The notes below the pieces were generated by a model, which was not told where the DNA came from, did no database searches, and saw only the letters and a program-made list of their open reading frames with translations. Position numbers and translations under genes: made by a program. From assembly GCA_019057815.1 (NCBI GenBank), contig JAHLWR010000001.1, positions 224,001-288,000 on the forward strand: a stretch of 64,000 bases of DNA, in the 5' to 3' direction. Below are positions 8,434 to 64,000 of this stretch, piece after piece; position 1 is the stretch's first letter; every line of letters begins with the position of its first letter. The DNA is from Candidatus Heimdallarchaeota archaeon (lineage in GTDB: Archaea; Asgardarchaeota; Heimdallarchaeia; Heimdallarchaeales; Heimdallarchaeaceae).

Positions 8434-8445
8434 TTTATATGCTTT
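8434..8445 (+). promoter_or_regulatory. TATA box of the proS leader transcript (TTTATATGCTTT)
   Basis: The identical 12-mer occurs upstream of thrS (33751-33762) at nearly the same distance from the shared GAGGACAATGAA motif. Confidence 0.65.
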
Positions 8446-8467
8446 CTAGGATGAAGATTTGAGGACA

Positions 8468-8506
8468 ATGAAAGGTGACTATGTTCCGACAAATACTTGT
8501 AAGTAA
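8468..8506 (+). promoter_or_regulatory. Putative proS leader uORF MKGDYVPTNTCK (Pro codon CCG at 8486-8488)
   Basis: ATG AAA GGT GAC TAT GTT CCG ACA AAT ACT TGT AAG TAA; the motif is shared with the thrS and leuS leaders. Confidence 0.6.
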
Positions 8507-8589: not shown

Positions 8590-10026
8590 ATGTCAGTATT
8601 TTCTAAAAACAAAGAAGAGAATTTTATGGCTTGGTATCTAGATATTGTTCGTCGCGCACAAATCGTTGACACAAGAACAGAAGTTAAAGGTGCGAATGTT
8701 CTTATGGCGAATGGTTATGAGATATGGGATAGGATGAAAAACATCCTTGATGGGAAATTCCGCAAAACAGGACACAAAAACATGTACTTTCCTCTATTAA
8801 TTCCTGAAAAATTCTTAACACTTGAAAGTACGCACTTTGAGGGATTTGTTCCCGAAGTTGGTTGGGTAACAAAAGTTGGCGAAAGAGATTTAGAGGAAAT
8901 CTATGCTTTACGACCAACATCAGAAACAATCATGTATCATATGTACGCCCAATGGATTAGGGCATATACTGATATGCCTCTGAAAGTAAACCAATGGTGT
9001 AATATCATACGCATAGATACAAAAGATACTAAACCTTTACTCCGAGATAGAGAATTTCAATGGACAGAGGCGCATACATGTCATTCATCTGCAGAAGAAG
9101 CAGAAGAGCAAGTTAAGCAATCAATGTGGATATATGGTTCATTCTTCGATGAGTGTTGCTTGCCTTATATAATTGTCAAACGTCCTAAACATGACACTTT
9201 TCCTGGTGCTCTATATAGTGTTGCATATGATTGTCCTCTCCCAGATGGCAAAAGTTTGCAAATTGGTACTACTCACAATCTTGATCAAGGATTTAGTAAA
9301 ATCTTTGAAATTCGTTTCCAAAAAGCTGATGGTAGTCATGATTACGCATATCAAACCTGTTATGGTTTATCTACTAGAGTTATTGCAGCTGTAATAGGTG
9401 TACATGGTGATAGTAGAGGATTGATTATCCCTCCTTTTCTCGCACCAATACAAGTTGTAATTGTTCCTATTTTGTTCAAAGGAAAGGAAGAAAAAGTTGT
9501 AAACGAATGTAAAGAAGTTTTAGGAACTGTAGAAAAAGCAGGATATAGAGTTCTATACGATGATAAAGATAAAACCAGCGGTTGGAAATTCAACGAATAT
9601 GAGCTACTGGGTGTTCCCCTTCGCATTGAAATAGGTCCTAAAGATGTAGAAAAAGAATCAGTGGTCGTCGTTCGCAGAGATACAAAAGAGAAAATATCCG
9701 TAAAAAAAGACAACATAGTAAGAACAATTAATGAATTACTAGAAAAAATAACTGATGAACTAAAGACTAGAGCTAAGAAATTTTTGGAAAGTTCGATTAC
9801 AGATGTATTAACATATGAAGAACTTGAAGCGCAATTAACTCTAGATAAAGCAGGTTATATTCGAACTAACTGGTGTACAGATGTTTCTTGTTCTGACCAT
9901 ATAAAGGAAAAATTCAAGGCAAATATTCTAGGAACAAAATATGGTGAAGAGGAAAAGAGCTTTGGTAATTGTGCTATATGTGGAAATGAAGCTAAAGAAG
10001 TTGTATATATTTCTAAAACCTATTAA
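8590..10026 (+). CDS. proS: Proline--tRNA ligase, archaeal/eukaryotic type
   Basis: LRPTSET, NQWCNIIR, LLRDREFQW, QIGTTHNL motifs, anticodon domain and C-terminal Zn site ending in KTY. Confidence 0.97.
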   Translation: MSVFSKNKEENFMAWYLDIVRRAQIVDTRTEVKGANVLMANGYEIWDRMKNILDGKFRKTGHKNMYFPLLIPEKFLTLESTHFEGFVPEVGWVTKVGERDLEEIYALRPTSETIMYHMYAQWIRAYTDMPLKVNQWCNIIRIDTKDTKPLLRDREFQWTEAHTCHSSAEEAEEQVKQSMWIYGSFFDECCLPYIIVKRPKHDTFPGALYSVAYDCPLPDGKSLQIGTTHNLDQGFSKIFEIRFQKADGSHDYAYQTCYGLSTRVIAAVIGVHGDSRGLIIPPFLAPIQVVIVPILFKGKEEKVVNECKEVLGTVEKAGYRVLYDDKDKTSGWKFNEYELLGVPLRIEIGPKDVEKESVVVVRRDTKEKISVKKDNIVRTINELLEKITDELKTRAKKFLESSITDVLTYEELEAQLTLDKAGYIRTNWCTDVSCSDHIKEKFKANILGTKYGEEEKSFGNCAICGNEAKEVVYISKTY

Positions 10027-33372: not shown

Positions 33373-33708
33373 GTGTCTGTTTCTACAAAAACATCTTTTA
33401 CCTACAGAAGTATACTTTCTATTGGATTAGTGATACTTGGGTTATCCTTAATAATAGTTAGAATTTGGATTGATAGCTCTTTATGGAAAATAGTACTTAT
33501 TGCTGTTGGAGCATCTATTGCATTATTTGGATATTTATCAACAAGAACCATTTCTCAATTAAATGACCATAAGTGTCCTATTTGCAAAGGTACAGGAAGC
33601 ACTTGTTCAAGAGCTTGTATTAGTTGTTCAATTAAATCTTCTAAATGTACATATTGTAATGGTACTGGTAGAATAGTAAAAGAAAGCAAAGAAAGGACGA
33701 ATCTTTAG
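33373..33708 (+). CDS. Small 2-TM membrane protein with DnaJ-type zinc finger
   Basis: Two hydrophobic helices followed by CPICKGTG...CRACISC...CTYCNGTG. Confidence 0.75.
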   Translation: MSVSTKTSFTYRSILSIGLVILGLSLIIVRIWIDSSLWKIVLIAVGASIALFGYLSTRTISQLNDHKCPICKGTGSTCSRACISCSIKSSKCTYCNGTGRIVKESKERTNL

Positions 33709-33750
33709 GCTGTTCTTTTGCAGGTTTCTTCTCTTTTATTTGAAAAATCT

Positions 33751-33762
33751 TTTATATGCTTT
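33751..33762 (+). promoter_or_regulatory. TATA box of the thrS leader transcript (TTTATATGCTTT)
   Basis: Same 12-mer as upstream of proS. Confidence 0.65.
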
Positions 33763-33785
33763 GATTCTTCCTTTATTTGAGGACA

Positions 33786-33818
33786 ATGAATAAAGGTGAA
33801 TGCGAAACAAACAGATAA
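33786..33818 (+). promoter_or_regulatory. Putative thrS leader uORF MNKGECETNR (Thr codon ACA at 33807-33809)
   Basis: ATG AAT AAA GGT GAA TGC GAA ACA AAC AGA TAA; shares TTTGAGGACAATGAA..AAGGTGA with the proS leader. Confidence 0.6.
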
Positions 33819-33889
33819 AGATTTTATTGTGCCTTTATTTAGTAATTATGTACTCTTTGATCCTAATAGTAAAGTTTTGAGGTGTTTAC

Positions 33890-35815
33890 ATGTCAATGGT
33901 AGAAGTTACTTTGCCTGATGGTAGTAAAATAGAGATAAAAAAAGGTAAAACGGTCTTAGATGTAGCTGAAAACATAGGACCAGGTTTAGCAAAAGCTGCT
34001 ATTGCTGGTAGGTTGAATGATGACTTTGTAGATTTAACTTGTAAAATCGTAGATAATTGTAATCTTGAGATTATTACACTAAAATCTGATGATGCTTTTC
34101 ATATCCTCAATCATAGCGCAGCTCATATCATGGCAAGTGCGGTTGTAAAAATATTCCCAAATGCCCGTCCAACCATCGGACCTGCAGTTGATGAGGGATT
34201 TTACTATGATTTTGCAATTGACGAACCCTTTTCTCAGGAGGATTTAGAGAATATCGAATCTCAGATGAAGGAATTCATAGAAGCTGATACACCCTTTGTA
34301 AGGGAGGATATCTCCATTAAAGAAGCGATAGAATACTATAAATTAACTGAAGATAACAAATTCAAGGTAGAAATACTTGAAGAAATTGATGATAGTAACT
34401 CAATATCATTTTATAGTCATAATAATGGGGATTTCAAAGATTTATGCCGAGGACCGCACGTTCCCTCCACAAAGAGAGTGACAACTGTTAAACTACTTAG
34501 TGTTTCCTCAGCTTTCTGGAGAGGTGATGCTAAACGTGAGTCACTTCAACGAATTTATGGGATAGCTTTTCCAACAGAAAAGGATCTTAAGAAGCATCTT
34601 AGGATGCTTGAAGAAGCTAAAAAACGCGACCATAGAATTCTTGGCCCACAACTTGATCTTTTCGACACTGCAGACGAATGGGGGCCTGGAATGCCTTTAA
34701 TCTTTCCCAAAGGTCGAGTTATTCTAGAAACTATGAGAAACTTTTGGGAAAAAGAACACAAGAAAGCTGGATATGAGATAGTACAAACACCTCACATATT
34801 CAAAGAAATAGTATGGCAAACAAGCGGTCATACTGAATATTTCATCGAAAATATGTTTCCTGTAGATTTACGAGGAGAACTTTGGTATGTAAAACCAATG
34901 AACTGTCCAGGACACATGATGATCTACAACAGACGTGCTTATTCATACAAAGAATTACCTGTACGTATTGGAGAAATGGGAACTGTTTATCGATATGAAT
35001 TATCTGGAGTTTTGCATGGTCTATTTAGAATACGTAGTTTTACTCAAGATGATGCACATATATTCATGCTACCTTCCCAACTAGAAGATGAAATTGTCAA
35101 TGTAATAAACATGGTTAATCATTTCTACAAGACTTTTGGGTTTAAGGAATGGGAATATTTCATAAGTACTAAACCTGCAAAAGCTATTGGAACAGAAGAA
35201 GGTTGGGAACATGCAACTAATGCACTGATAAATGCCATGAAACGTGTTGATATACCTTTTAAAATTAAGAAGGGTGATGGAGCTTTTTATGGTCCTAAAA
35301 TTGATGTTGATGTCAAAGATGCAATAGGGCGAAAATGGCAACTATCAACCATTCAAGTTGATTTCAACTTACCTGAAAGATTTGACATTAATTATTTAGG
35401 AGAAGACAGTCAAAAGCATAGACCGTATGTTATTCATAGAGTAATATATGGTGCAACGGAGAGGTTCTTAGCAATACTAGTCGAACACTATGAAGGTAAA
35501 ATGCCTGTTTGGTTGAGTCCTATACAAGTTGTAGTTATTCCAATTACTGACAATCATGTAAATTATGCTAAAAAAGTAGTTGAAGAATTCAGTAAAGCAG
35601 AAATTCGCGCAGAAGCAGATACGAGCGGTGAAAGAATGGAATATAAAATCCGTCAAGCTACTTTAAACAAAATCCCATATATACTAAATGTTGGTGATAA
35701 AGAACTTGAATCTAAGACAATAGCAGTGAGATCCAGGGGAAATAAAGTAGAATTTGGGGTAAACATTCCAGACTTTATCAATAAAATACTAAAGGAAATT
35801 GAAAATTATCAATAA
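33890..35815 (+). CDS. thrS: Threonine--tRNA ligase (bacterial/eukaryotic architecture: TGS + editing domain)
   Basis: VTLPDGS (TGS), HSAAHIMA, DLCRGPH, RDHR, KPMNCPGH, FTQDDAH, GAFYGPKID motifs. Confidence 0.97.
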   Translation: MSMVEVTLPDGSKIEIKKGKTVLDVAENIGPGLAKAAIAGRLNDDFVDLTCKIVDNCNLEIITLKSDDAFHILNHSAAHIMASAVVKIFPNARPTIGPAVDEGFYYDFAIDEPFSQEDLENIESQMKEFIEADTPFVREDISIKEAIEYYKLTEDNKFKVEILEEIDDSNSISFYSHNNGDFKDLCRGPHVPSTKRVTTVKLLSVSSAFWRGDAKRESLQRIYGIAFPTEKDLKKHLRMLEEAKKRDHRILGPQLDLFDTADEWGPGMPLIFPKGRVILETMRNFWEKEHKKAGYEIVQTPHIFKEIVWQTSGHTEYFIENMFPVDLRGELWYVKPMNCPGHMMIYNRRAYSYKELPVRIGEMGTVYRYELSGVLHGLFRIRSFTQDDAHIFMLPSQLEDEIVNVINMVNHFYKTFGFKEWEYFISTKPAKAIGTEEGWEHATNALINAMKRVDIPFKIKKGDGAFYGPKIDVDVKDAIGRKWQLSTIQVDFNLPERFDINYLGEDSQKHRPYVIHRVIYGATERFLAILVEHYEGKMPVWLSPIQVVVIPITDNHVNYAKKVVEEFSKAEIRAEADTSGERMEYKIRQATLNKIPYILNVGDKELESKTIAVRSRGNKVEFGVNIPDFINKILKEIENYQ

Positions 35816-36826: not shown

Positions 36827-39760
36827 CTATTCTAGAAGTAATGCAGGTTTCATTGGTCTGGCTTTTTGGGCTTTCTTTTGTGGATCATAAATCTCTTTTT
36901 CGTCAGCCATATGAATTAGGATTTTAGCTTTGTTGTATTTATCACTTATGAATTCTGTATATCCTTCTATTGCATTTTTTTGGTTTTTGGTAGATAGTAT
37001 TTTGATCCGAAAAATTGTTGGATCTTTCAGCATTAATTTTGCTTCATTTGCAATTTCCTTCATGTATTTACTTAGTTCATTATTATCTTTAGATGCTGAC
37101 ATTACTTTTCCTATTTGTACTGCTTCTTCCTCAAATATTTTTTTTGCTAATTCATATAATACATTCTTCCATTCTGCGTTGATGTAAATATGAATCTTCT
37201 TTGGCTTAGTTTTAACCAATTTAACTATCTGTTCAATATCTTCCATTAAATCAGTCATATATTTAGATTGCAGAGCATATAGTAAATCTTCATTAGTAAT
37301 AACAATATCTGGAATTAGTTTCAACGAAACATAGTCTGTATACCCCATTCTCTCATTCAACTCTTCACAGATATGAGGAATTGCTGGTGCCATAATAATG
37401 ACTATCTTCTCAATAATGTCTCTTAAAACAGCTTTTTTCTCGGTTTTTGGTAGATGTTCCGCTATTTTATAATATTCATCAATCGCTCTTATATTTGCAT
37501 AGAATCCATCTAAAATATAGTCTCTTGCATTGAACTTCTCAATTGCTTCTAGTGCACTTTTTAGGTTGGTTTTTACAGAAGAATGCAATATTTTTGATGG
37601 GAATGAGTAGGCAATGTTTTTCTTTCCAGTGGTATCTGTTACACTTAAAGCATATTCCCAGAATTTCCTCAACCTTTGTTTAGCATAATTCACTTCTGTA
37701 TCTTTCCATTCTAACACAGTCTCTGGTGTTGCAACAGATGCTAGATGTAATCTTGTTAGGTCAACACTGTATTTCTCCGGAACAAGGGCTATTGGAATAA
37801 CATTTCCTTTACTCTTACTCATCGCTTCTCCGAAACGACTTACCATATCGTTTAATGAGAAAGCAGGTAACCAGTATTTTTCAGGGAATATCGCTACATG
37901 GTGAAAGATTGCGAATGATAAATGATTAGAGATATGATGAATAGCTGTATGTCTAAGATCATTAGGATACCAATACTCAAATTCTTCTTTCATTTGTTTT
38001 ATAATATGTTCTGATAATTCTGTTTTCTTACTTACTTCCTTAATGTCACCTTCATCTAGAAGGATATAATCAAACAGCATAGGTTTCAGTTGATTAGCTT
38101 TTATATTGTTCTTTTTTATGTGTTTAACAATTGTGTAATATGCCATATAAATCACTGAATCACTCAGTGACTCAATTATCCATCCTTCTCCTTTTGTTAA
38201 TGGAAATTCTGTTCCTAGTCCTCTTCTTCTCACACAAGGTCTTTTATCTAACCAATTGAAAGTATTTTCAAAACTTTGTCTATATTTTTCTGGAATGATT
38301 GTCATTTTATTTAATGCTTCGAATGCTTTTTTATTCCATTCAGCATCTCCATAATTTAGGAAATATTGGTTCTGAATAATTGCTACAATAATTTGACCAC
38401 CACATCTACAAGAAGCTTTAGCAGATGTCTCATAAATAGGTGCTGCTAAATTAATATCAAATAGAACATCTGCGATTCTATCTTTTGCCTCTTCAATTTT
38501 TAATCCTTCGAAGTCTCCTGTATTATCCTTCATAATCCCAGAGTAATATTCATCCTTGTAAATCGTTTGAGTAGCCTTTTCTAATTTTCCAGTATCTTCT
38601 TGCGATTTAACACCCAATTTCTGACATAACTCTACTGCTGGAAAATCACCATAGTCTTTTACTTTAATCATGGATATAGGATTTATTTGTTTCAGCTTTT
38701 CAGAATTTAAAGCATATTTTTCAATTGTTTTTTCATCTTTCTGCAAATCAACTAAAGCAGTATAATCATAAGGAGCATGCCCAGGAACACTATAAACGAT
38801 ACCAGTAGCATGATCAGTATCAATAAAATTAGCTGGGTAAACAGGAATTTTACTTTTTGTTATTGGAACTTCAACAATCTTGTCTAAGATTTCTTCACCC
38901 TTCAGCTCTCTAATTATGGTGATTTTATGATCTTGTTCCATTAGCTTCATAGTTGCTTCTTTAGAAATTATCCATGTTTCATCATCGATGGAGATTTCAT
39001 TATAGAAACCATCAGGATGTATCCAAACATTGGTTGCTCCGAATATTGTTTCGGGTCGAAGTGTAGCTGCAACTAAAAAGGAGTTATTTTCAAGAATGAA
39101 TTTAATACCAACAAACTCAGTAACTTCTACTTTAATCTCATCTCCTGCTTGAATGTCATCTTCACCAACAGCGTTTTTATCGTTTATGCACCATAAAATA
39201 GGGTGATTTCCTTTAGTAATAAGGTTTTTATTGTTTAGCTTGATGTATTGCCATTCAATGAATTTGTTGTATTCTGAATCTCCTGTAGTGAATTGTCTAG
39301 TAGTATCAAGTGAATATCCCATTTTTAGAAAATCTTGAATTATTTTCTTTGCAAAATAACTAGCAACATTTTCTGGTTTTGTAAAAGAAGAGATTACTTC
39401 CTCAATTCTTTTTGTATCCTTTTCATATATTGAAATGTATTCACGATATTTTTTCCATTCATCTTCATCGTTATTCCGAATTTTCCAGGATACAGCGAGA
39501 ACTGGAGTACCAGTTATATGAAAACCCATTGGCCACAAAACATTGTATCCTTGTTGTCTTTTGTATCTGGCAAATATATCACCTAAACCATAAGTTCTAC
39601 TATGACCTATGTGAAGAGGAGCAGTAGCATAAGGATAAGACACTGTTAGAAACCATTTTGGTTTGCTCTTATCAATAACACCTACGAAAACATTATCTTC
39701 TTGCCATTTCTTTTGCCATTTCTTTTCGATCTCACGTATTACTTCGAGAAAATTCGTCAT
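36827..39760 (-). CDS. leuS: Leucine--tRNA ligase, archaeal/eukaryotic type
   Basis: YPY...LHIGH, GFHITGTP, ATLRPET, SVPGHAPYD, IESLSDS, AMSKSKGN, KARPMKPAL; ATG at 39760 (GTG at 39769 is an alternative). Confidence 0.97.
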   Translation of the reverse strand: MTNFLEVIREIEKKWQKKWQEDNVFVGVIDKSKPKWFLTVSYPYATAPLHIGHSRTYGLGDIFARYKRQQGYNVLWPMGFHITGTPVLAVSWKIRNNDEDEWKKYREYISIYEKDTKRIEEVISSFTKPENVASYFAKKIIQDFLKMGYSLDTTRQFTTGDSEYNKFIEWQYIKLNNKNLITKGNHPILWCINDKNAVGEDDIQAGDEIKVEVTEFVGIKFILENNSFLVAATLRPETIFGATNVWIHPDGFYNEISIDDETWIISKEATMKLMEQDHKITIIRELKGEEILDKIVEVPITKSKIPVYPANFIDTDHATGIVYSVPGHAPYDYTALVDLQKDEKTIEKYALNSEKLKQINPISMIKVKDYGDFPAVELCQKLGVKSQEDTGKLEKATQTIYKDEYYSGIMKDNTGDFEGLKIEEAKDRIADVLFDINLAAPIYETSAKASCRCGGQIIVAIIQNQYFLNYGDAEWNKKAFEALNKMTIIPEKYRQSFENTFNWLDKRPCVRRRGLGTEFPLTKGEGWIIESLSDSVIYMAYYTIVKHIKKNNIKANQLKPMLFDYILLDEGDIKEVSKKTELSEHIIKQMKEEFEYWYPNDLRHTAIHHISNHLSFAIFHHVAIFPEKYWLPAFSLNDMVSRFGEAMSKSKGNVIPIALVPEKYSVDLTRLHLASVATPETVLEWKDTEVNYAKQRLRKFWEYALSVTDTTGKKNIAYSFPSKILHSSVKTNLKSALEAIEKFNARDYILDGFYANIRAIDEYYKIAEHLPKTEKKAVLRDIIEKIVIIMAPAIPHICEELNERMGYTDYVSLKLIPDIVITNEDLLYALQSKYMTDLMEDIEQIVKLVKTKPKKIHIYINAEWKNVLYELAKKIFEEEAVQIGKVMSASKDNNELSKYMKEIANEAKLMLKDPTIFRIKILSTKNQKNAIEGYTEFISDKYNKAKILIHMADEKEIYDPQKKAQKARPMKPALLLE

Positions 39761-39924
39761 AATAATCACTTTGTTTCTCCTTTTGTCTATAGTTCACTGA
39801 TGATTCCATACAACGCTTTGAATTGTAGAGCCAAAACGCTAAATTAAAAGCTTTACTTCCAATCATTAGAATAGATTTTCCTAAGAATAAAATCTGGAAA
39901 CCACTAAATTTCAAAGGTAGAGCT

Positions 39925-39954
39925 TCAAATGGGAAGAACACATTCACCAGTCAT
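39925..39954 (-). promoter_or_regulatory. Putative leuS leader uORF MTGECVLPI (Leu codon CTT at 39936-39934)
   Basis: Minus strand GGAGAATAATATA ATG ACT GGT GAA TGT GTT CTT CCC ATT TGA; same G-E-C core as the thrS uORF. Confidence 0.55.
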
Positions 39955-63604: not shown

Positions 63605-64000
63605 CTTGAGTTTCTACAAATTTGCAATTATAGACAATTATGGAAGAGAAGAAGTATCAAAAATACAAAAATAAGATAATTACCAGAATAAACAAGAAAC
63701 AAAAAAGCTCAATAATCAAATTAAGAACTATATATACTTCTGGGCAAGAGGAGGAATATGGACAGAATAACAAGAAAAAACAAAGGATTAAGAATGAAAA
63801 TATAAAAACAATTTATCCTATATAAAAAGATATTATTTGTAGAGAAAACATTAATGTCCAACCGTTAAACAAAGGAATTGAACGAGAGGACGAAAAAGAG
63901 GAGAATACAAGGGTTTGGAGGGGGGTAGAATAGCAAAAGGTATGCAGAAGGGTTGTAATAAGGAAAAAAAAGAGCACAACCGAAAAGGTTTTTAATAGAC

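Follow-up and report, generated by a model that had tools for sequence, protein, structure and literature searches.

What is a very short upstream open reading frame (uORF) with a single threonine codon doing directly behind the promoter of a threonyl-tRNA synthetase gene? The question is raised by the thrS locus of a 3.74-Mb genome of Candidatus Heimdallarchaeota (Asgard). Besides thrS, the window analysed here, i.e. the whole stretch of 64,000 nt, contains the prolyl- and leucyl-tRNA synthetase genes proS and leuS; the identities of all three were assigned by NCBIfam models with scores above cut-off (Table 1). We know of no account of how archaea, which have no T-boxes, tune the levels of their aminoacyl-tRNA synthetases (aaRS) to tRNA charging. 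As judged from comparison with related genomes, the thrS leader is very probably a conserved, translated cognate-codon leader that regulates thrS, and the locus is a member of a hitherto undescribed family of such leaders at archaeal synthetase genes. As to how the leader might act, we favour +1 frameshifting at a "hungry" cognate codon, similar to that of bacterial prfB and coupled to translation of the synthetase, a reading to which we assign a probability of about 0.5.

Cognate-codon leaders upstream of synthetase genes

The thrS loci were taken from 40 relatives, 20 of which are family members with an intact 5' region and constitute the leader set. Among the relatives of the thrS gene that bear organism names are those of Ca. 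Heimdallarchaeum endolithica PR6, Ca. H. aukensis PM71, and the metagenome-assembled genome AB_125. All 20 leaders, as well as those of three genomes from a distant family, contain a uORF of 9–11 codons of the form M-x-G-E/D-Y/C/W-E-T-..-stop, made up of ATG, one or two variable codons, the core GGT GA(A/C) T(A/G)N GAA ACA, one to three further codons, and a stop. Changes in length after the ATG comprise whole codons, and ATG and stop are in frame in every relative examined; the loss of frame conservation which a preliminary description of this DNA had considered thus does not occur. Like the leader ORFs of the thrL and pheM attenuators, the uORF is short, and its conservation suggests that it is translated. 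A phylum-wide pattern scan of 400 genomes recovered the element in 27 of the 30 genomes of the family and, outside the family, gave only three real matches upstream of thrS. In these three, MLGE(C/Y)ETKR followed by a stop is located 87 nt before thrS in a leader that is otherwise dissimilar, and the ThrRS of this distant family is only 54% identical (tblastn). The other out-of-family matches were mostly coding sequence, for example of a GEWETPLG protein. A second possible start in the leader, ATG 33800 (26-aa ORF, 33800–33880), was discarded, since its frame relative to the Thr codon varies among the relatives.

The closest non-Asgard relatives of the ThrRS are bacterial proteins (42–50% identity). 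A sister family of the same order possesses an archaeal-type ThrRS of 26–29% identity, without a leader uORF. The pattern suggests gene replacement, with the leader device residing on the acquired type.

The thrS leader resembles that of proS. According to the preliminary description, both genes share a TATA-like 12-mer, followed after 27–28 nt by GAGGACAATGAA and then by AAGGTGA, and the 15-mer TTTGAGGACAATGAA is identical in the two. The coordinates bear this out: GAGGACAATGAA occurs at 33779–33790, 28 nt from the start of the 12-mer, and AAGGTGA at 33793–33799 in the thrS leader, while the corresponding positions in the proS leader are 8461–8472 (27 nt) and 8472–8478; exact copies of the 15-mer start at 33776 and 8458. 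No further copy, either exact or with up to one mismatch, is present in the entire genome, so the 15-mer is not a generic promoter word. The TATA-like 12-mer TTTATATGCTTT occurs three times genome-wide and its TATA-like part TTTTATATGC 25 times. The scan contradicts the suspicion that the 15-mer might be found at many non-aaRS genes, and marks the module as specific to synthetase leaders. In all 20 thrS leaders, the TATA-like element is situated 34–36 nt 5' of the uORF ATG, leaving a 5' untranslated region of only a few nucleotides, in agreement with the earlier suggestion that the uORF is nearly leaderless. Between the uORF and the Shine-Dalgarno (SD) sequence of thrS there are about 70 nt of AT-rich leader. 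An assembled RNA contig of a 96%-identical strain, which derives from a single metatranscriptome study and can show neither transcript ends nor levels, corresponds to 33802–34908 and thus indicates that leader and gene are co-transcribed. RNA coverage is missing upstream, where the DNA contigs continue, and such uncovered parts prove nothing; a transcription start near 33779 is plausible, the edge of the RNA contig being a weak hint. The RNA contig of leuS ends at 39871, short of the leuS uORF.

Thr at the sensing position of the thrS leader, as noted in the preliminary description, has its counterparts in Pro at proS, Leu at leuS, and Ile at ileS. The proS set comprises 19 leaders from four families, with a uORF of the form M-x-G-E/D-Y/F/C-(V/L/F)-P and CCG, CCA or CCT as sensing codon. 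In the 25 leuS leaders, the uORF reads G-E/D-C/Y-V-L, M-G-Y-R-V-L-L or variants thereof, with CTT or CTA at the sensing position, and in the 27 ileS leaders, which belong to two paralogues (both TIGR00392), it reads M-D-R-E-I-(R/H)-stop or M-D-H-Q-I, the sensing codon being ATT. There is a single Thr codon in all thrS leaders and a single Pro or Ile codon in the respective sister leaders; leuS leaders often have two Leu codons. That the sensing position follows the downstream enzyme and varies synonymously indicates decoding by the ribosome and argues against a T-box-like RNA.

A survey of 22 aaRS-family gene places in this genome confirmed the element at five genes, with pheS as a variant. 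By the survey criteria, no element was found at metS, cysS, gluS/glnS-like, tyrS, trpS, argS, lysS, alaS, and aspS/asnS-like genes, nor was it seen at three other class-IIb-like genes. At valS, an off-frame of 30 codons is open; a matching uORF is missing. A genome-wide search for further type-A uORFs by regular expression and a generic screen for a short ORF combined with a long +1 frame both yielded almost exclusively matches which were coding or lacked a downstream gene, and MSGECAFT on contig C16 proved to be a false positive.

Several observations concern the individual sister genes. The two ileS paralogues of this genome are 36% identical, and both score above the TIGR00392 cut-off; their leaders are located at positions 63606–63845 of contig C35 and 6170–6262 of contig C11. 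Both are preceded by a separate uORF of the form M-(D/G)-R-E-I, together with an open +1 frame; most relatives possess only the C11 type. The leader of the pheS alpha gene (contig C5, around 68970–69090, minus strand) shows the core (C/A)CTTGGAATTT without variation and contains a short ORF (..T/P-W-N-F..), overlapped by a frame that is free of stops as far as the pheS start; only in a third register (TTG GAA TTT) is TTT, the Phe codon, kept in all cases. Many genomes of the main genus of the family (G002, G003, G010–G012, G018, G035) encode a different ProRS of about 503 aa with 38–41% identity, upstream of which the proS uORF is missing, so that the presence of the element tracks the enzyme type. 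The leuS uORF has been lost in a subclade of the family (G020, G012, G018, G011), where the end of the upstream gene is close by; this is a natural loss, and in three quarters of the uORF-less loci the SD of leuS is the stronger GGAGGA.

The open +1 frame and the putative shift site

From the stop of the uORF to the start of thrS, the leaders of the 20 family members add up to 452 codons per frame. The +1 frame, defined as that of the GTG within GGTGA, contains no stop codon at all, compared with 38 stops in frame 0 and 62 in frame +2. A stop-free +1 frame is likewise present in the leaders of proS, leuS (60–70 codons), and ileS, and in the distant-family thrS leaders, which cannot be aligned with the others, it is yet open for 33 codons. 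The probability that a shuffled leader lacks +1 stops is 0.09–0.41 for thrS, 0.04–0.31 for proS, about 0.01 for leuS in one family (f1) and up to 0.27 in the shorter leuS leaders of other families, and 0.01–0.18 for ileS, apart from one very short leader. For the five unrelated leaders of this genome, the product of these probabilities is approximately 4e-7; the leaders of the relatives are greatly diverged, though not statistically independent. The peptide encoded in the +1 frame is not conserved, only its openness is kept, suggesting that the act of translation is what is selected. The frame ends between 13 nt before and 41 nt after the synthetase start, with overlaps such as ATGA, GTGCTAA, and ATGGTAG. 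The open frame points to frameshifting rather than to a switch of RNA structure by a stalled ribosome.

How ribosomes might enter the +1 frame is indicated by the sister leaders. None of the start codons ATG, GTG, and TTG occurs in the +1 frame within or before its overlap with uORF1 in 23 of the 27 ileS leaders and 8 of the 25 leuS leaders, and in the two complete Heimdallarchaeum genomes the +1 frame of the ileS leader contains no start codon whatsoever, yet is open. Entry by ordinary initiation is therefore unlikely at these genes. In the upstream direction, the +1 frame mostly meets a stop 8–14 nt before the codon that precedes the cognate codon; together with the missing start codons, this places the point of entry within a window of a few codons which includes the conserved core. 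The simplest route would be for ribosomes engaged on uORF1 to shift by +1.

The codon preceding the cognate codon shows an unusual pattern of conservation. It is GAA in all 20 thrS leaders; GAA (24) or CAA (3) in ileS; GTT (12), CTT (6) or TTT (1) in proS; and GTT (22), TTT (2) or GAT (1) in leuS. Apart from the single GAT, to which we return below, variation is confined to the first base, which alters the encoded amino acid, and the second and third bases are constant; ordinary coding constraint works the other way round. NAA stands before cognate codons starting with A and NUU before those starting with C (the NYY rule). Such a reversed conservation is what re-pairing of the P-site tRNA in the +1 frame would require: after the slip, this tRNA would face AAA or UUC, keeping two of three pairs. 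Genes for tRNA-Val(GAC), tRNA-Leu(GAG), and tRNA-Phe(GAA) are present, the G34 of which would pair better with C. Since aragorn detected only 25 tRNAs, probably owing to intron-containing genes, the tRNA gene content as such is not used as an argument.

Upstream of this codon lies GGTGA, which is constrained as a nucleotide sequence. All 45 type-A leaders use GGT as its Gly codon, compared with a genome-wide usage of 40% GGT and 42% GGA, and the base after GGTGA is free. The element is complementary to the 3' end GGATCACCTCCT of the 16S rRNA, as read from the 16S gene of this genome, and its distance of 4 nt from the P-site codon equals the modal spacing between SD and start codon in this genome. 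As RNA, GGUGA is complementary to the bacterial anti-SD as well. In all five leader sets, the calculated duplex with the anti-SD sequence has its minimum (−5 to −8 kcal/mol) where the window ends 2–4 nt before the P-site codon; the leaders without GGTGA (leuS type B, ileS) have this minimum at the same offset. Both 16S rRNA genes (contig C23, minus strand) contain an insert of about 33 nt, AAATACATGAGTAGAAACTTATGTATCGCAAGT, between the conserved CCTGCGG and the 3'-terminal GGATCACCTCCT; it could form a hairpin and may be a mini-intron, an expansion or a processed spacer.

Here, as in many of the related genomes, thrS and leuS lie side by side in convergent orientation, with their two leaders at opposite, outer ends of the pair. 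Immediately 5' of the thrS promoter, a 111-aa ORF (33373–33708, plus strand) has C-terminal repeated CxxC motifs (KCPICKGTGSTCS...CTYCNGTG) resembling a DnaJ-type zinc finger.

Table 1. Positions of the leader elements and genes of thrS, proS, and leuS in the window
Feature	Position	Strand	Remarks
TATA-like promoter 12-mer TTTATATGCTTT of thrS	33751..33762	+	identical to the proS copy
GAGGAC, predicted transcript 5' end, anti-SD-complementary element, and 5' arm of a long-range helix	33779..33784	+	alignment, RNAalifold, anti-SD profile
thrS uORF1, MNKGECETNR-stop, single Thr codon	33786..33818 (ATG to TAA)	+	kept in 20/20 family relatives
GGTGA, internal SD-like element, ends 4 nt before GAA	33795..33799	+	invariant in 45/45 type-A leaders
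thrS +1 frame ORF, 40 codons, from inside uORF1 across SD and ATG	33796..33918	+	stop 26–28 nt past the ATG
GAA, proposed P-site codon (slippery, NAA-A)	33804..33806	+	GAA in 20/20 thrS leaders
ACA, Thr sensing codon, proposed hungry A-site codon	33807..33809	+	ACA in 20/20 thrS leaders
GTACTC, degenerate local copy of the GUCCUC 3' arm, with mismatch	33850..33855	+	alignment columns 82–87
SD of thrS, GAGGTG	33879..33884	+	
thrS, threonine--tRNA ligase, bacterial type with TGS N-terminus	33890..35815	+	TIGR00418, 673 bits
Copy of the TATA-like 12-mer TTTATATGCTTT at proS	8434..8445	+	
proS uORF1, MKGDYVPTNTCK-stop, GTT-CCG at P-site and sensing positions	8468..8506	+	kept in 19 leaders, four families
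proS +1 frame ORF, 43 codons	8475..8606	+	ends 16 nt past the proS ATG 8590
proS, proline--tRNA ligase, archaeal/eukaryotic type	8590..10026	+	TIGR00408
leuS uORF1, MTGECVLPI-stop, GGTGA then GTT-CTT	39925..39954	-	
leuS +1 frame ORF, 71 codons, crosses the GTG start	39732..39947	-	probability of being open when shuffled about 0.01
leuS, leucine--tRNA ligase, archaeal type, GTG start 39769	36827..39769	-	TIGR00395

Proposed mechanism and alternative explanations

The uORF with its cognate codon, the SD-like element, the NYY rule, and the open +1 frame ending near the synthetase start are features of the aligned leaders. Taken together, they would fit, at about even odds, a ribosome-based sensor of the charging of tRNA(Thr) that operates by a +1 slip. 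Transcription would start about 7 nt before the uORF, and after four to six codons the ribosome would arrive at GAA-ACA, where GGUGA could pair with the 3' end of the 16S rRNA at a spacing like that of a start site. This would anchor the ribosome so that GAA occupies the P site and ACA, the Thr codon, the A site. With charged tRNA-Thr in plentiful supply, ACA would be decoded and translation would terminate three codons later. If charged tRNA-Thr is scarce, the A site would stay empty, and the peptidyl-tRNA might slip by +1, from GAA-A to AAA. The shifted ribosome would read the stop-free frame across the SD and ATG of thrS and terminate a few to about 30 nt later, bringing ribosomes to the thrS start by termination-reinitiation or by clearing of the start region; possibly, shifted ribosomes also guard the transcript from termination at a T-run behind the uORF. 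The outcome would be more ThrRS when its product is short, and proS, leuS, and the two ileS genes would employ the same device, each with its own codon. In this scheme we infer the frameshift itself, its dependence on tRNA charging, and its positive coupling to thrS. For the group as a whole, the comparison makes it an evenly balanced proposition that several aaRS genes of Asgard archaea share a class of recoding sensors, consisting of a near-leaderless mini-ORF, an SD-like anchor, a slippery NAA or NUU codon, and the cognate codon.

A number of points weigh against frameshifting. The GTG inside GGTGA is always present and lies in the +1 frame of thrS, proS, and type-A leuS leaders; because of this ever-available start, the argument for frameshifting rests on the sister leaders. 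Re-pairing after the slip would be imperfect, with a mismatch at the first codon position, and the spacing behind GGTGA is relaxed and start-site-like, in place of the strained 3 nt of prfB. The thrS gene has a good SD of its own, which no conserved structure hides, so that a gain in expression from translation of the +1 frame is something we infer. Moreover, not every leader conforms: GAT precedes the cognate codon in one leuS leader, pheS falls outside the simple +1 register, and the thrS uORF was not found in two sister families, of which one encodes a ThrRS of a distant bacterial type (about 44% identical) and the other an archaeal-type enzyme. These weak points are the reason why the probability of frameshifting is not set higher.

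The GTG leads to the first alternative, namely that there are two overlapping leader frames without any frameshift, the +1 frame being entered at the GUG in GGUGA or by reinitiation after uORF1. Ribosomes halted by the hungry Thr codon would cover the GUG and alter the traversal of the long frame and of the thrS start. Consistent with this explanation, the GTG is invariant in the leaders just named, the 5' GAGGA element is located 10–13 nt upstream of it, and an open +1 frame ending near the start fits any model in which that frame is translated. However, in most ileS and several leuS leaders the +1 frame is open even though it offers no start codon in the vicinity of the uORF. The sign of the feedback would also be wrong, because a stall would block the long frame just when more enzyme is needed; it could be rescued only if translation of the long frame inhibited thrS, for which the ATGA-type overlaps appear ill-suited. 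Since, in addition, the NAA/NUU rule and the fixed 4-nt spacing of GGUGA are left unexplained, we regard this arrangement as unlikely.

An alternative of comparably low likelihood is classical ribosome-mediated attenuation, which is the idea of the preliminary description in its general form and which might operate alongside frameshifting. Stalling of a ribosome at the Thr codon would alter the pairing of the leader RNA, for example by preventing the helix between the 5' GAGGAC and GUCCUC; in a variant, the position of the ribosome relative to RNA polymerase would decide on termination at the T-run behind the uORF, oligo-T being the archaeal signal for intrinsic termination. The conserved cognate-codon uORF suits this explanation. 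RNAalifold predicted a single 6-bp helix in the thrS leaders, formed by the 5' GAGGAC with GUCCUC about 70 nt downstream, which is 96% paired and has two compensatory pairs, and the leuS leaders contain an analogous covarying helix, GGAAACC/GGTTTCC changing to GGAGACC/GGTCTTC. T-runs of at least 5 nt follow the uORF stop in 14 of 20 thrS leaders and in 19 of 27 ileS leaders. On the other hand, these T-runs are not accompanied by hairpins, and in the copy under study the run does not exceed T4 and the helix has a mismatch. Only one cognate codon is present, in place of a run of such codons. RNAalifold and comparison of minimum free energies (MFE) with those of shuffled sequences revealed no mutually exclusive terminator and antiterminator hairpins in the leader; the thrS leader has an MFE of −18.6 kcal/mol compared with −19.5 ± 3.1 kcal/mol for shuffles (z = +0.28), and z is −0.86 for the leader of one relative.

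Specifically, the preliminary description had proposed a stem between AATAAAGG at the uORF start (33789–33796) and CCTTTATT (33832–33839), and an outer pairing of AGGA with TCCT (33861–33864), by which occupancy of the uORF would switch the structure ahead of the thrS SD. Both pairings are possible in this copy, where the two arms of the stem are indeed complementary, and they appear in its MFE fold, which is no better than those of shuffled sequences. In the alignment of orthologous thrS leaders which that description had recommended, the stem is absent from a genome of the same genus and from all others, the outer pairing is likewise not conserved in any relative, and GAGGAC/GUCCUC is the only conserved helix. 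The TCCT arm is also altered in the 96%-identical strain seen in metagenomes. No conserved structure covers the SD, and the proposed switch is thus not borne out. Attenuation alone would, furthermore, leave unexplained why the +1 frame lacks stops in about 90 leaders.

It is very improbable that the leader is an RNA-only element, binding either uncharged tRNA in the manner of a T-box or ThrRS in the manner of the E. coli thrS operator, with incidental reading frames. GGUGA and the cognate triplet are conserved as nucleotides, and the ThrRS is of the bacterial type, as this explanation would have it. However, in a search with Rfam cmscan no family passed the gathering threshold over the entire window, and at E values up to 10 the region 33650–33950 returned only noise and no T-box (RF00230). 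A conserved hairpin resembling an anticodon arm, as in the E. coli-type operator, was not found near the thrS SD, and the structure of the leader is not significant. The Pro and Leu codons vary synonymously, and a start codon ATG in frame, a stop close by, indels of whole codons, and a +1 frame without stops are properties of reading frames. Finally, a generic promoter or initiator module without regulatory meaning, in keeping with the commonness of the TATA-like part, is hardly conceivable given that the 15-mer occurs only at thrS and proS and that the features further downstream persist across families and go with synthetase genes.

Comparison with known systems and implications

The closest known system is the autoregulatory +1 frameshift of bacterial prfB, coding for release factor 2, in which an SD-like AGGGGG is followed after 3 nt by CUU and UGA-C. 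The thrS leader has in common with it an SD-like element a few nucleotides upstream of a shift-prone P-site codon, a next codon that would be decoded slowly when the gene's own product is scarce, and an early stop in frame 0 with continuation in frame +1, which would amount to negative feedback. It differs in that the slow codon is a sense codon for the enzyme's own aminoacyl-tRNA and not a stop codon, that the spacing after GGUGA is 4 nt and start-site-like instead of a strained 3 nt, and that the host is an archaeon. In addition, the +1 frame is out of frame with thrS, being an unconserved leader frame that ends at the synthetase start. In contrast to prfB, the archaeal device is a prediction from sequence.

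With bacterial leader-peptide attenuators (thrL, hisL, pheL, and pheM of pheM-pheST), the leader shares a short ORF which would report on one charged tRNA and control a pathway or synthetase gene. Unlike these, it has a single cognate codon, no set of terminator and antiterminator hairpins, and an overlapping open +1 frame, and it occurs in Archaea. T-box riboswitches of Gram-positive aaRS genes, including thrS, likewise have a cognate triplet at a fixed position in which sister leaders differ; a T-box sequence, Stem I, and terminator are, however, absent here, as is a match to RF00230, and the triplet is part of a conserved frame from ATG to stop, the Pro and Leu triplets varying synonymously. 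Termination-reinitiation coupling is known from overlapping gene pairs (ATGA-type) in bacteria and archaea. In the leaders, the +1 frame similarly stops on or within about 40 nt of a synthetase start that has its own SD, and reinitiation may follow there; unlike in ordinary coupling, the upstream partner is a leader frame that appears to be reachable only by recoding, and not an ordinary gene. A metabolite-dependent +1 shift serving as a feedback sensor would also recall eukaryotic antizyme, the polyamine sensor, in which, by contrast, the signal is the polyamines acting at a stop codon and the frameshift product is a functional protein.

Hungry-codon frameshifting has so far been known as an error or a laboratory phenomenon. 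A full-text literature search turned up nothing on leader uORFs at archaeal synthetase genes or on frameshifting there, nor did a literature search return any report of leader-peptide attenuation in archaea. According to a 2021 review on archaeal recoding, the −1 programmed frameshift of fucA1 is the only demonstrated cellular frameshift; the same review also lists selenocysteine and pyrrolysine readthrough, some viral cases, and a suspected case in magnesium chelatase (PMC8211752).

The module described here is compact (about 110 nt) and phylogenetically well supported, and with regard to annotation, its leaders hold two overlapping small ORFs that gene callers ignore. Should the frameshift reading be correct, the thrS leader and its sisters would represent the first regulatory programmed frameshift in cellular archaeal genes and the first natural sensor based on hungry-codon frameshifting, in the lineage closest to eukaryotes, and would answer the question of how archaea without T-boxes sense the charging of their tRNAs.

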